NCBI GenBank assembly: GCA_046292385.1
Contig: JBKBRF010000011.1
Coordinates: forward strand, 1-64,000
Reading direction: 5' to 3'
DNA: 64,000 nt
From: Armatimonadota bacterium
Lineage (GTDB): Bacteria > Armatimonadota > SYMT01
Part shown: one piece after another, positions 8,393 through 11,300 of the stretch
Layout of the letters: the number at the start of each line of letters is the position of its first letter
Position numbering within the stretch: position 1 is the first letter of the stretch
Made by a program: the position numbers

Positions 8393-11300
8393 TTCAGGTC
8401 CTCGCGCTTCAGGTAGATCTTCGCCCCGCCCGCGTGCGCGGAAAGCCGCTCCGCGTAGTAGAGCGGCGTGGGCCGACCCACGTACTCCCGCAGGTAGTAC
8501 TGCAGCTCCGCCTGGAACTCCGGCTCCTCCCGCGCCTGGAGGTACTTTTCGGTCAGCTCCTCCAGCGCCGGCATCAGCGTCTCCGGCACAAACCGGCCGC
8601 CATACTCCCCAAACCGCCCGCGGGCGTCCGGGAGCGTCGTCCCACTCTCACCTGCCATCGGCTCCCCCTCTCCGCTCACTTCCCGGCCTGCGGCTCCGCC
8701 GGCCGGACCTCGAACTCGATCGCGGCTTCCCGGCCGCGGCGGCGGACCCGCAGCGAGACCGCGTCGGCCGGCAGGTACGCCTCGTCGTAAACCAGCGGCC
8801 GCCCCGCCGCGTCGAGCGTGACCCGCTCCGAAAGCCAGGCCCCGCCTCCCGCCGGCCGCTGCAGCCGTCCCGCCGCCTCGGGTGGGAGCGCCGCCACCGT
8901 CAACCGCTCCTCCGCGGAGACCGGGATACGACCGGTCGCCTCGCGCAGCCGCACGTAGAGCGAGGCGTCCGGGGTCATTCCCTGCACCACCGCCGCCAGC
9001 TCTCCCGGCAGGTAAGACGTCTGCACCGCCATCGGCCGCCCCTCGGCAGACCGCAGCCGCACCACCGCCGCCAGCAGTGCCTTCGCCTCCAACCCCAGCG
9101 CCTCCGCGGCCCGTGGGTGGCGAACCTCTGTGCGCCGCTCGCACACCTCGGTCGCGGTGGCGAGCGCTTGCTCCGCCATCTGCGACGAAAAGCTGGGGAG
9201 CTGCAGCTCGAATTGCTCGTGCCAGGCGGTCACGAAGGTTCCGACGCCGTGCTCCACCCGCAGCAGCCCCTCCTCCTCCAGTGACCGGAGCGCCCGCCTC
9301 ACCGTGATCGCGGTGGTGCGGTACTCGCGCGCCAGCTCGCTGATCGCCGGGAGCTGCTGCCCCACCCGCAGGCGACCCTCCCGCACCGATCGCCGAAGCT
9401 GGTCCGCGATCCCGGAGAACCCGGAGCGCTGCAATTGGAGGGGCGAAGGAGAAGTAGACATCTACATGTCGACTCTAGCGCCAGAGGGGCGCGGCGTCAA
9501 TCTCTCTCCAGAAAAAGCCACGCACCGCCCCGTTTGGGGCGGTGCGGCAACAGTGACCGGAGGTTGGGTCACCCGCTAGCGGGTGGCGACTGCCGCTTCG
9601 GCTTCGGCGGCTTCCGCCTCCGCCGCGTTCGGAAGCTGCTCCGGGAAGAAAAGGCCGCGCTGGCGGGCCATAAAACCGGAAAGCCGCTGGATCGCCTGGC
9701 TGTGGAGCTGGTGCGCCCGGCTCTCCGACCGCCCGATGTGCTTGGCGATCTGCTTCAGCGTCCAGCCCTCATAGTAGTAGTAGACGATGACGGTGCGCTC
9801 CTGGGCCGGCAGCCAGGAGATGCAGCGCGCCAGCTGGCTCTTCTGGCTGTCCACGATCGCCAGCACGTGCGGGTCCGGCGCCTTGCTCTTCACCGACTCC
9901 AGCACCACCAGCGGATCCGCATCCTCTCGATCCGAGTCTCCCACCACGTCCTCGAGCGAGACCACCTGCAGGACGTTCGCCTCGTAGTAAAGCTGGTAGA
10001 AAGCGTCGATCGGCATCTCCAGGTGGTTCGCCCGATCGCTGTCGGTCACGTTCTCCACGCCCTTGGCTCGCGCGAGCTCCTCTTCCGCCTTGTTGAGGAG
10101 CTTCTGCTTGGTGCGGACGCTGCGCGGGACCCAGTCTTCACGGCGAAGATACTCCAGCATCGCGCCGCGGATCATCGAGATCGCGTAGGACTCGAACTTG
10201 ACCTTCCGTCCCAGGTCGAAGTGATCCACCGCCTTCACGAGGGCGATGAAGCCTTCCTGATCCAGGTCTTCCGGTGCGATCTTCACCGGTACCGTCGGAA
10301 TGATCCGCTGGCGCGTCTTCGTGATCAGGTAGCGGTAGTGCTCGATGATCCCGTCCCGGGAGCGAGAGCACTTGCGGTGCTTGAAGTTGTGCCAGAGAGA
10401 CTGCAAAGCAGCCTGGAGCTCAGCGGAGGTTCTTCTGGACATGGCGGAGTGTCCCTCTCGGATGCAGCCAGGATGCGCGGCGGCGCCGCGCCAAGATAGT
10501 TTCTCAGTCCGTTTTCATTGTCCCCACATGCGGCAGGCAGATGCTAAACGCCTGCTTCTGTGAGGTACAAGCAACCGTCATCCACGCCGAACCCGGTCCG
10601 GAGGGTGGGTTGCTCGAGCGCTAGCCCTCTCCAGGCGGCGGGTACACCCGCTAGGGAGGGGGCCGAACGGCGGGCTCTGGAGCCGCACGCAGTACCCGAA
10701 ACCGGCGGCCGAAATCGAATCGGCGCGTGGTGGTTGGTGTGTAGGAACTTCGCTCCGGCTCGATTCAACTCCTGCCACTCCGGCCCATTTTTTCTGCACT
10801 TTTTGCCACCACGCACGCTCCGAATCAGAAGGTACAGATCCACGCTGAACGCTTGGTCGGAGGCCGAACGTACGAGCGTGCGATTGACTGTGCGAGAAGC
10901 AGAAGTGAGGTGGAAGGAGGGCCTGTCTCATGGGGCACCGAGCGACCGAGCCCTCGCCGGCGTGTGGGCCGGGCGTAGGGTGAACCGGATTATTGGCACC
11001 ATTTGCCACCCTCTTGAGAGCCGGATGTACGGCGCCGTGGGAGAGGTGGGGAGACGCAGCGACCAATGAAAAAGAGCGACGATCCATGGGAGATCGCCGC
11101 TCTCTAGATCCACGCGCCCGGAGGGACTCGAACCCCCGGCCTACAGGTCCGCAACCTGTCGCTCTAATCCGCTGAGCTACGGGCGCAGGTCGATTGCAAC
11201 CGGAGTATAGCATCGGGATTGGGGACCGTCAAGAGGGGAGATTGGGGGCCTGCGGGGATCAGGGGTCAATGGTTGCCGTGGCTCCCGCGCAAGGATGCGG

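Follow-up and report, generated by a model that had tools for sequence, protein, structure and literature searches.

TadA is essential in E. coli, is widely treated as near-universal in bacteria and is the parent of the adenine base editors. The window analyzed here (64,000 nucleotides, positions 1 to 64,000 of contig JBKBRF010000011.1 of an Armatimonadota bacterium) carries a gene for a tRNA-Arg with the anticodon GCG, and a first-pass annotation had proposed that the organism possesses neither TadA nor tRNA-Arg(ACG) and leaves CGU and CGC to this tRNA. The locus raises the question whether the CGN codons of this genome are indeed read without inosine at position 34, and which history such a state would have.

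The tRNA-Arg(GCG) gene

11112..11187, minus strand: tRNA-Arg(GCG) gene (ARAGORN cloverleaf call; Infernal span 11113-11186)
11150..11152, minus strand: anticodon GCG (G34 C35 G36), by direct sequence reading; position 36 of the ARAGORN call
11204..11232, minus strand: promoter-like site TTGACG, 17 nt, TG-TATACT (consensus scan, 10/12 matches)

The gene scored 68.1 bits with the Rfam model RF00005 against a gathering score of 29 (11113-11186, minus strand, model positions 1-71), and this score together with the ARAGORN cloverleaf supports a sound tRNA gene. As the sole match to the Arg(GCG) pattern in the genome it is a single copy, and its CCA end is not encoded. The anticodon loop reads UUGCGGA (U32 U33 G C G G37 A38), and the D-loop, AGCGGAUUA, has an A after G18 G19. 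The arginine identity elements known for the E. coli ArgRS are A20, C35 and G36, all three of which were read in the gene; covariance score, cloverleaf and identity elements consequently argue for an arginine acceptor. A site that is promoter-like by its consensus match ends approximately 17 nt upstream of the 5' end, two such sites being found by the scan versus 0.1 expected in shuffles. The sequence does not reveal the parent isoacceptor, its identity being 79.7% with an ACG tRNA versus 81% with tRNAs of relatives that carry UCG or CCG; in one relative (G127), the anticodon stem of the GCG tRNA equals that of the adjoining CCG tRNA.

Arginine tRNA set and codon use

The genome was assembled to 7.04 Mb in 91 contigs with 69% G+C and is 98.45% complete. 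Its DnaN found as homologues just two MAG records under the label Actinomycetota, which we regard as mislabeled, and a Clostridia record (31% identity). Infernal returned 51 tRNA matches, those for arginine carrying the anticodons GCG, CCG, UCG, CCU and UCU. The CGN box is represented by three of them:

C11:11113, tRNA-Arg(GCG), 68.1 bits (Infernal)
C7:157645, tRNA-Arg(UCG), 68.8 bits (Infernal)
C5:35388, tRNA-Arg(CCG), 67.5 bits (Infernal)

No tRNA-Arg(ACG) was present among the 51 matches, the ACG pattern had zero matches in the genome, and the Infernal-supported set held no A34 tRNA of any kind. An “ACG” called by ARAGORN only (C75:16952-17035) is 84 nt long, is devoid of the landmarks GTAGCTCA, TAGAGC and GGTTCGA and is absent from the Infernal list, so that we share the earlier judgment of a poor call. 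Further ARAGORN-only calls, namely GCG (C45, C15), CCG (C14), UCU (C26) and Ile(GAU) (C1), were likewise set aside, being without tRNA landmarks and missing from the Infernal list. In a crude count over 3987 ORFs, CGC (71,437) and CGT (6,373) accounted for about half of 153,977 arginine codons, which is near the figures given before. CGC and CGG dominate arginine coding in this genome, CGG being the second most used arginine codon.

G34 pairs with C in the Watson-Crick manner and with U by G-U wobble. By these standard rules, tRNA-Arg(GCG) would serve both CGC and CGU, tRNA-Arg(UCG) would serve CGA and probably also CGG, and tRNA-Arg(CCG) would serve CGG. CGA is out of reach of G34, which makes the UCG tRNA of this genome indispensable. 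With CGN covered by GCG, UCG and CCG, neither an A34 tRNA-Arg(ACG) nor the A34-to-I34 deaminase TadA would be needed. The same sequence-based reasoning suggests that position 34 is a G and not inosine in the mature tRNA, and that the G36-G37 loop may carry a modification such as m1G37. We regard it as highly probable (about 0.88) that the feature is a housekeeping tRNA-Arg with an encoded G34, in an organism that has neither tRNA-Arg(ACG) nor TadA and needs neither.

Deaminase-fold genes

In a search with the model NF008113, the best matches in this genome were RibD (56 bits) and a 149-aa deaminase (47.6 bits), the level of true TadAs in Armatimonadota by the same model being 145-179 bits. The cut-off of 150 bits applied in the first-pass annotation proved too strict as a criterion, because only six of 14 control genomes pass it. 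A phylum TadA profile was additionally built from 30 same-phylum TadAs and run with filters off against all six-frame ORFs of at least 40 aa. It reached RibD and the 149-aa deaminase again (best scores 57.7 and 51.4 bits) and nothing else; by contrast, 74 TadAs from other phyla scored at least 197 bits. The genome holds three deaminase-fold loci only:

C1:273012, RibD, ORF of 645 aa whose C-terminal part is a reductase (RibD-type fusion)
C10:80575, yeast-type cytosine deaminase, 149 aa, E 6e-32 to yeast cytosine deaminase structures
C18:38261, Cdd/blasticidin-deaminase-like, motif CAEH...PCGRC

The protein at C10:80575 was considered as a divergent TadA and ruled out, its match to yeast cytosine deaminase spanning residues 9-148, including the C-terminal WxEDIGE, versus just E 3e-12 to TadA structures. 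By score, by family assignment of the candidates and by the missing substrate tRNA-Arg(ACG), none of these loci belongs to TadA. The Infernal set, NF008113 and the phylum profile hence bear out the proposal of a genome without TadA and without ACG that has GCG, UCG and CCG for CGN.

Distribution in Armatimonadota and Chloroflexota

The analysis was extended to 401 Armatimonadota genomes, including the present one. NF008113 scores are bimodal within the phylum (at least 145 bits versus at most 96 bits, the lower class probably representing guanine/guanosine deaminases), and TadA was found in 39 of the 401 genomes, in 38 at 145 bits or more and in one as a fragment at the end of a contig (116 bits). 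Matches of 63-97 bits in relatives were set aside as candidates for divergent TadAs: two hits were compared with solved structures (L272-L276, L324 and L325 were left out), and both had guanine/guanosine deaminases as best match. The class at 80-85 bits is also present in genomes with a true TadA.

The ACG pattern likewise occurs in 39 of the 401 genomes and in 30 of the 39 with TadA; five of the remaining nine were checked by covariance model, and ACG was present in four of these. Within the TadA-bearing minority, tadA and tRNA-Arg(ACG) are thus tightly coupled. The GCG pattern was detected in at least 285 of the 401 genomes, which is a lower bound, four out of five non-matching genomes that were checked holding GCG variants outside the pattern. 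Each of the 23 single-contig genomes has just one of the two tRNAs: GCG in all 22 that lack TadA, and ACG in the single one that carries it. None of the six relatives in family f1, to which the genome belongs, has TadA or the ACG pattern, and five of them carry the same tRNA-Arg(GCG) with 97-100% identity. The state without TadA and ACG is that of the family and of most of the phylum, as had been stated before.

Nine genomes show the ACG pattern without TadA, four of them from f5 and five from f13. The f5 genomes are 77-89% complete in three cases and 95% in one. In the f13 genome G026, one of the five, the ACG tRNA is part of a 12-tRNA array that includes short tRNAs for Leu and Ser, and the genome has a normal GCG tRNA as well; a housekeeping role of this ACG tRNA was therefore set aside, and the array appears to be of a foreign type.

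In the sampled neighboring phylum Chloroflexota, a clear TadA (at least 157 bits) was found in nine of 121 genomes, and approximately 90% of the 121 have GCG without TadA. TadA-like proteins of 101-125 bits occur in 11 of the 121.

Gene order and phylogeny

Comparison of the tRNA loci revealed a conserved cassette, Ser(GCU)-Arg(NCG)-Arg(CCG)-Arg(CCU)-[tadA]-Ser(CGA), in which TadA-less relatives have GCG in the ACG slot. The order tadA followed by Ser(CGA) is seen in many other phyla; 50 of 80 loci carry tRNAs, with Arg(ACG) called in five and lying directly upstream of tadA in four. The arrangement Arg(ACG)-tadA-Ser(CGA)-Ser(GGA) recurs in records of Nitrospirota, Planctomycetota, Myxococcota and Pseudomonadota. 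Out of 21 GCG loci from TadA-less genomes, six have Arg(GCG)-Arg(CCU)-Ser(CGA), with a spacer of 7-105 nt at the would-be tadA position in five of them. Three of the 21 have Ser(GCU)-Arg(GCG), one of which (G127, family f32) shows the full Ser(GCU)-Arg(GCG)-Arg(CCG)-Arg(CCU), i.e., the order found in the TadA-bearing sister family f9. Overall, the cassette order persists in TadA-less genomes of both major clades, GCG taking the place of ACG. A spacer of 636 nt in G388 was considered as the site of a tadA relic, which was ruled out, since it contains an HNH-endonuclease-like ORF and no TadA signal.

In the RpoB tree of 59 rows, whose root is unreliable (the two outgroup rows are not on one side of any branch and are joined by one artefactual row), all 12 TadA-bearing Armatimonadota rows fall within one clade of 21 rows (SH-aLRT 99). 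The genome studied here belongs to a clade of 30 rows (SH-aLRT 99) without any TadA, and a further clade of five rows has none either. Families without TadA are nested in the TadA clade: f32 beside f9, f17 beside f41, and six families beside f46. The TadA tree, too weakly resolved to tell vertical descent from transfer, places the TadAs of the phylum in at least two groups mixed with other phyla, the TadA grouping of f30, f36 and f46 agreeing with the RpoB grouping.

The ancestor most likely had the cassette Ser(GCU)-Arg(ACG)-Arg(CCG)-Arg(CCU)-tadA-Ser(CGA)-Ser(GGA), the ACG slot of which would have come to hold a G34 gene, with tadA being deleted; in the present genome, tRNA-Arg(GCG) would now stand alone with its own promoter-like site. 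TadA and ACG had been described as “reappearing” together in a few families. The restriction of TadA families to one RpoB clade, the cassette shared with other phyla and its retention with GCG in TadA-less relatives favor loss of tadA instead, without proving the direction.

Alternative explanations

Two explanations would bring inosine back into this organism. According to one, tadA and tRNA-Arg(ACG) reside in an unassembled stretch, e.g., beside collapsed rRNA operons, and the GCG tRNA is an extra isoacceptor. The rRNA operons are indeed unassembled, as had been noted, given that no 16S or 23S primer site is found in the assembly at up to one mismatch, and tRNA-Ile(GAU) and tRNA-Ala(UGC) are absent with them. 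As the ACG-tadA cluster of f5 adjoins Ile(GAU), and in one genome ACG adjoins Ala(UGC), such a cluster could sit in the gap; moreover, a few f5 genomes have a GCG tRNA in addition to TadA and ACG. We nevertheless hold an assembly artefact to be very improbable in view of family f1, of the 22 single-contig genomes and of the TadA-free RpoB clade around this genome. In addition, the assembly contains the other cassette tRNAs, dispersed over the genome: Ser(GCU), Arg(CCG), Arg(CCU), Ser(CGA) and Ser(GGA). Arg(CCU) lies 392 nt from a contig end, and its contig has no match to the TadA profile. The other explanation, a divergent or non-homologous deaminase that still generates I34 on some tRNA of this genome, seems to us slimmer still. 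Profiles can miss very divergent enzymes, and 11 of the Chloroflexota genomes carry the TadA-like proteins of 101-125 bits; however, the Infernal-supported set offers no A34 tRNA and thereby no substrate for an I34 deaminase, each of the three deaminase-fold genes fits another family better, and the full-sensitivity search with the phylum profile found nothing.

A third explanation, which corresponds to the “reappearing” of the first-pass annotation, accepts the G34 tRNA and reverses its history: the phylum ancestor would have had GCG and no TadA, and one clade would have acquired tadA together with the A34 tRNA by horizontal transfer. We rate this as unlikely, though it deserves serious weight. 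It is compatible with the confinement of TadA to the 21-row clade next to clades of 30 and five rows without it, with the mostly TadA-less Chloroflexota, and with the mixing of phylum TadAs among other phyla; G34 has, furthermore, been proposed as ancestral for C-ending codons in a passage of PMC3239186. On the other hand, recurrence of the cassette in four other phyla means that it is older than Armatimonadota or moves as a unit, and TadA-less genomes of both major clades keep the flanking tRNA order around GCG. The nested TadA-less families require losses in any case, and the TadA grouping of f30, f36 and f46 follows the RpoB grouping. A later gain would alter the history alone and not the role of tRNA-Arg(GCG). 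A wider scenario may be considered tentatively, in which G34 arginine decoding without TadA prevails in two or more large neighboring phyla, TadA being absent from approximately 90% of the sampled Armatimonadota and of the sampled Chloroflexota. Here tadA, ACG and the flanking tRNAs would behave as one cassette, the NCG slot of which alternates in situ between A34 and G34 as tadA comes and goes; the ancestor may never have used inosine, and the cassette would have spread later as a unit of a tRNA and its editing enzyme. We find this wider scenario doubtful, a little more so than the later gain.

Significance and comparison with known systems

The first-pass annotation rested on the premise that TadA is conserved in bacteria save for some Mollicutes, which is outdated according to passages in PMC6063277, PMC8007984, PMC8629427 and PMC8072771, the last of which states the general rule. 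Neither is the TadA-less GCG state novel, being in print for Thermotogae, Spirochaetes, the Candidate Phyla Radiation (CPR) and some Mollicutes. The genome consequently adds a further phylum to a known exception and no new principle. Added here are the counts (TadA in 39 of 401 Armatimonadota and clear TadA in nine of 121 Chloroflexota, coupled with ACG) and the gene order evidence that G34 and A34 tRNA genes occupy one slot of an old tRNA-tadA cassette. Among the papers listed by a literature search on Armatimonadetes together with tadA, none was related, judged by titles and abstract openings. For practical purposes, tadA and tRNA-Arg(ACG) should not be among the genes that annotation pipelines or completeness checks require of Armatimonadota and Chloroflexota, and models of codon usage and expression for both phyla should apply G34 rules. 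The loss of an otherwise essential modification enzyme could be studied in a natural pair, the sister families f9 and f32.

A close likeness is found in free-living lineages that have no TadA and no target tRNA and a non-target G34 tRNA. Diwan and Agashe (2018, PMC6063277) describe, in the passages available, repeated TadA losses across 1093 bacteria, with the target tRNA lost and non-target tRNAs present, and the coupling of tadA and ACG in Armatimonadota is the coupling reported there. For all sequenced Thermotogae and Spirochaetes, passages in PMC8007984 give tRNA-Arg(GCG) in place of ACG. This also answers the earlier concern that the weak match of Thermotoga to the TadA model reveals a detection gap: Thermotogae carry GCG and not ACG, and we take the match for a probable paralogue. 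Armatimonadota do not appear in the phylum list of PMC8007984 and are not named in the passages cited here from PMC6063277.

The CPR, including Absconditabacteria, have an identical set according to passages in Shulgina and Eddy (2021, PMC8629427), in which CGU and CGC fall to GCG, CGA and CGG fall to UCG and CCG, and ACG is missing. Absconditabacteria combine it with a reassignment of CGA and CGG; the present genome, with CGG as its second most used arginine codon, gives no sign of reassignment. The Mollicutes in question (the Pneumoniae group and M. pulmonis; Yokobori et al. 2013, PMC3711424, in part) are parasites with reduced genomes, in which CGN codons are sparingly used and tRNA-Arg(CCG) has been lost as well; the present genome, in contrast, has 7 Mb and 69% G+C, retains CCG and encodes arginine mainly by CGC and CGG. 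With the canonical I34 system of TadA and tRNA-Arg(ACG), as described for E. coli in a passage of the same paper, the tRNA studied here would share the reading of CGU and CGC and, in relatives, the cassette slot; it differs in that G34 is encoded and no enzyme is needed.

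The tRNA-Arg(GCG) gene and the arginine tRNA set

The tRNA-Arg(GCG) gene was called by ARAGORN and matched the Rfam tRNA model with 68.1 bits (gathering score 29). The features of this locus in the window are:

11112-11187, minus strand: tRNA-Arg(GCG) gene (ARAGORN; Rfam tRNA model)
11150-11152, minus strand: anticodon GCG (direct sequence reading)
ending ~17 nt upstream of the tRNA: putative promoter-like site, TTGACG, 17 nt, TG-TATACT (consensus scan)

Read from the sequence, the acceptor stem is GCGCCCG/CGGGCGC, the anticodon loop U-U-G-C-G-G-A and the D-loop contains G18 G19 followed by A; CCA is not encoded in the gene. 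Two promoter-like sites were observed in the region compared with 0.1 expected from shuffles. The gene has no tRNA neighbours, and the flanking ORFs include, judging from their translations, a putative sigma-factor-like gene and a putative GntR-like gene downstream. Among the matches listed, its closest named matches were MAG records of Chthonomonadaceae (94.7% identity) and Chthonomonadales (94.6%). Within the family of the genome (f1), five of six relatives carry this tRNA with 97-100% identity, the sixth genome being only 69% complete. Comparison with the other Arg isoacceptors singled out no single source isoacceptor. Isolated 24-nt matches to Rfam CRISPR-DR28 were recorded elsewhere in the window at 6515-6538 (+), 28901-28924 (-), and 56471-56494 (-), scoring 35.6-35.9 bits at a gathering score of 35; standing singly and tens of kb from one another, they have the appearance of a dispersed short repeat, not of a CRISPR array.

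The genome assembly (7,043,135 bases, 91 contigs, 68.9% G+C), in which the window corresponds to C11:1-64000, yielded 51 tRNA matches with Infernal, including these arginine tRNAs:

C11: tRNA-Arg(GCG)
C5:35388: tRNA-Arg(CCG)
C7:157645: tRNA-Arg(UCG)
C40:394: tRNA-Arg(CCU)
C39:20538: tRNA-Arg(UCU)

Six further calls were made by ARAGORN only and were rejected, having no Infernal support and lacking the D-arm or T-arm landmarks of true Arg tRNAs. One of them is an 84-nt “ACG” tRNA at C75:16952, which the first-pass annotation had rightly distrusted. The Arg(GCG) sequence pattern matched once in the genome, and no match was obtained with the Arg(ACG) pattern. The Infernal list also holds no tRNA-Ile(GAU) or tRNA-Ala(UGC). 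Since no 16S or 23S primer site was found at ≤1 mismatch, the rRNA operons are indeed missing from the assembly, as had been supposed. In 3987 crudely defined ORFs, arginine is encoded by CGC (71,437), CGU (6,373), CGA (7,708), CGG (62,505), AGA (1,972), and AGG (3,982). By these counts, about half of all arginine codons would be served by the single tRNA-Arg(GCG) gene.

Several unusual tRNA-like genes were also recorded by Infernal. Two adjoining tRNA genes (C5:199142-199303; 60 and 55.9 bits) have 8-nt anticodon loops, read by ARAGORN as the four-base “anticodons” CUCU and CGAA, and an identical T-arm. A pair of ~122-nt genes (C17:39356-39477 and 39690-39812; ~50 bits) carries a ~50-nt insert in each anticodon loop, with the motif CTTGCCCGGAGACGGGCCG common to both inserts. 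Two 62-nt elements (C10:7184-7245 and 22881-22942; 30-35 bits) are devoid of a D-arm and identical in their 3' halves.

Absence of TadA from the genome

The curated 150-bit cut-off of the TadA profile NF008113, on which the absence of TadA had originally been based, proved too strict, as just 6 of 14 control genomes reached it. Within Armatimonadota the scores are bimodal: true TadAs reach 144.9-179 bits, two contig-end fragments 128 and 116 bits, and all others ≤96 bits. Two representatives of the lower class best matched guanine/guanosine deaminase structures (93 bits, end to end at E 1e-48; 84 bits, E 4e-38), and its 80-85-bit members were also found in genomes having a true TadA. At E 0.001, 376/401 genomes were tallied “with a match”, a figure that counts paralogues.

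NF008113, PF00383, and PF14437 combined detected three deaminase-fold loci in the genome under study, none of which qualified as TadA. The 645-aa ORF at C1:273012 joins a RibD-type deaminase to a C-terminal reductase part, and the product of C18:38261 is Cdd- or blasticidin-deaminase-like (CAEH...PCGRC). The protein at C10:80575 matched yeast cytosine deaminase structures over residues 9-148 (E 6e-32), the C-terminal WxEDIGE included, compared with only E 3e-12 for TadA structures, which cover just its N-terminal two thirds. It was annotated as:

C10:80566-81015 (fetched locus L002:1492-1941, plus strand): yeast-type (Fcy1-like) cytosine deaminase, 149 aa, adjoining dnaN

As an independent check, a profile built from 30 Armatimonadota TadAs was run with filters off against all six-frame ORFs of ≥40 aa. 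It recognized 74 TadAs of other phyla with at least 197 bits and found no TadA in the genome, the best scores being 57.7 bits (RibD) and 51.4 bits (the cytosine deaminase). The tRNA set and the profile searches therefore bear out the original observation of a G34 tRNA-Arg(GCG) with neither TadA nor tRNA-Arg(ACG). Judged by gene content, CGN decoding here would be the ordinary G34 solution.

Distribution within Armatimonadota

Among 401 genomes of the phylum, the one under study included, TadA was found in 39 (36 above the cut-off, two at 146.6 and 144.9 bits, and one 116-bit fragment). These belong to f5 (22/27), f9 (4/4), f30 (4/4), f40 (two), f46 (two), and, with one genome each, f36, f41, f42, f45, and f49; f1 has none in six. 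The GCG pattern occurs in 285/401 genomes. This is a lower bound, as four of five non-matching genomes examined have variants missed by the pattern (U38, altered T-loop or altered D-loop); the fifth showed no GCG tRNA among the loci fetched. The state of the genome is thus shared by its family and most of the phylum, as first proposed. The clearest picture came from the 23 single-contig genomes: all 22 without TadA have GCG and none has ACG, and the only TadA genome of the set carries ACG and lacks GCG.

The ACG pattern was likewise detected in 39/401 genomes (f5 26/27, f9 4/4, f13 5/24, plus f40, f45, and f46), covering 30 of the 39 TadA genomes. A custom covariance model applied to five of the remaining nine revealed tRNA-Arg(ACG) beside Ser(GCU) in four and none in the fifth, an assembly of 1060 contigs. 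Nine genomes, four of f5 and five of f13, show the ACG pattern without TadA. Three of these f5 genomes are 77-89% complete. The other, G019, is 95% complete and has a tRNA cluster Ile(GAU)-Ser(GCU)-Arg(ACG)-Ala(UGC) (L291:2678-3153); no TadA was found in it (best NF008113 score 62 bits, a RibD-sized ORF). Either tadA fell into a gap of the assembly or the A34 tRNA here has no editing enzyme. In the f13 genome G026, twelve tRNA genes are packed into 1.7 kb (L290:2285-4008) in the order Glu, Asp, Asn, Arg(ACG), Ser, Gln, Leu, Gln, Cys, Leu, Leu, His, with unusually short Leu and Ser tRNAs. The arrangement resembles a mobile or phage-type tRNA array; the genome has its own normal tRNA-Arg(GCG) and no TadA.

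Five of the 285 GCG-pattern genomes have TadA: four members of f5 carrying an additional GCG tRNA, and one with a stemless match that looks like chance. Five such extra tRNAs were located in f5 (G124:C45:83060, G196:C221:8031, G212:C192:1691, G169:C17:113396, and G160:C490:101), all with anticodon GCG, a GCGC D-stem, and A37, alongside tRNA-Arg(ACG), and with TadA in four of the five genomes. They could represent a redundant stage permitting the loss of tadA.

Gene order of the tRNA-tadA cassette

In TadA genomes, tadA lies within a tRNA cluster Ser(GCU)-Arg(ACG)-Arg(CCG)-Arg(CCU)-tadA-Ser(CGA)-Ser(GGA). Across 30 tadA loci with 1.5-kb flanks, Arg(CCU) adjoins tadA in 25 and ACG falls inside the flank in 10. 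The succession of tadA and Ser(CGA), often with Ser(GGA), was also seen in records of Actinomycetota, Chloroflexota, Gemmatimonadota, Acidobacteriota, Planctomycetota, Myxococcota, Nitrospirota, and Bacillota. Among 80 such tadA loci, 50 have tRNAs; Arg(ACG) was called in five, in four of them immediately upstream of tadA.

We examined 21 GCG loci from genomes without TadA. Six retain the order Arg(GCG)-Arg(CCU)-Ser(CGA), and in five of these the position of tadA holds only 7-105 nt. At the sixth (G388, f7) it holds 636 nt without any TadA signal, occupied by the following feature:

L395:1198-1833: HNH-endonuclease-like ORF between tRNA-Arg(CCU) and tRNA-Ser(CGA), exactly tadA's place in relatives

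Ser(GCU)-Arg(GCG) order was found in three of the 21 loci. The f32 genome G127 has the full Ser(GCU)-Arg(GCG)-Arg(CCG)-Arg(CCU), the same order that its TadA-bearing sister family f9 shows with ACG. By gene order, GCG thus occupies the position that ACG holds in TadA genomes. Solitary or tandemly duplicated GCG genes make up 12/21 loci, and the window's gene is of this kind.

The same state beyond the phylum

The exact anticodon-arm pattern of Arg(GCG) was found, among the matches listed, in many Chloroflexota and in Myxococcota, Spirochaetota, Desulfobacterota, Patescibacteria, and others. A sample of 121 Chloroflexota genomes, among them G463, which is flagged as unpublished, contained a clear TadA (≥157 bits) in nine and TadA-like proteins of 101-125 bits in 11; the remaining 101 gave nothing at E 1e-25. 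The ACG pattern is present in 10, namely all nine with a clear TadA and one more. The GCG pattern is present in 100/121 (99/120 without G463) and in none of the nine. One Myxococcota MAG and one Spirochaeta MAG, both with a GCG tRNA, likewise yielded no TadA. A 101-bit TadA-like protein of the Chloroflexia MAG chromosome G403 (L328:304-909, minus strand) has H-P-V in place of the catalytic H-A-E, in a genome with tRNA-Arg(GCG) and without ACG; a missing glutamate also marks eukaryotic Tad3, according to a passage in PMC3239186.

Loss versus gain of tadA

An RpoB tree was calculated from 59 rows, comprising at least one genome for 48 of 49 families and two Chloroflexota; it is a single-marker tree from a quick search, in which G088 was left out (no match) and the G029 row is artefactual. 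All 12 TadA-bearing Armatimonadota rows fall into one 21-row clade (SH-aLRT 99). The genome under study belongs to a 30-row clade (SH-aLRT 99) and a third clade has five rows (SH-aLRT 100), both without TadA.

According to the first-pass annotation, TadA and tRNA-Arg(ACG) “reappear” in a few families. A gain of tadA within the phylum would agree with the Chloroflexota being mostly without TadA too, with the uncertain root of the RpoB tree, and with a poorly resolved TadA tree that splits the Armatimonadota TadAs into at least two groups. Against an account by gain, TadA-less families are nested in the TadA clade (f32 beside f9, f17 beside f41, and six families beside f46), so that some losses are required. 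Together with GCG in the cassette position of ACG, this leads us to favour loss, at a probability of about 0.65: tadA would have been lost, and a G34 gene would have come to occupy the slot of ACG.

Comparison with known systems

The TadA-less state had been presented as a rarity. This is not supported, since its kind is already known, as passages of several publications indicate. In Mollicutes, tadA was lost and GCG stands in place of ACG, alongside UCG (Yokobori et al. 2013, PMC3711424). All sequenced Thermotogae and Spirochaetes are stated to have tRNA-Arg(GCG), not ACG (PMC8007984); the weak NF008113 signal in Thermotoga fits a paralogue, and at E 1e-25 neither Thermotoga nor Thermus rings any longer. 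Inosine wobble is described as unused by some deeply branching bacteria, with CPR having GCG along with UCG and CCG (PMC8629427), and species without A34 tRNAs as also being without TadA (PMC8072771). TadA has been termed pan-bacterial and G34 ancestral (PMC3239186). From a survey of 1093 bacteria, Diwan and Agashe (2018, PMC6063277) placed TadA in the bacterial ancestor and compared five major losses, naming Spirochaetes and a proteobacterial class; in their account, the loss of inosine is accompanied by a lost target tRNA and by non-target tRNAs being present.

Judged by titles and the start of abstracts, the papers listed by our search on tadA in Armatimonadetes were unrelated, and the passages retrieved on tadA, inosine or tRNA in Chloroflexi contain no statement that Chloroflexi lack TadA. 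New compared with these systems are G34 without TadA in the phylum Armatimonadota together with its numbers, probably the extent of the TadA-less state in Chloroflexota, and the gene-order evidence for a single slot, in an old tRNA-tadA cassette, that is occupied by either the A34 or the G34 gene.
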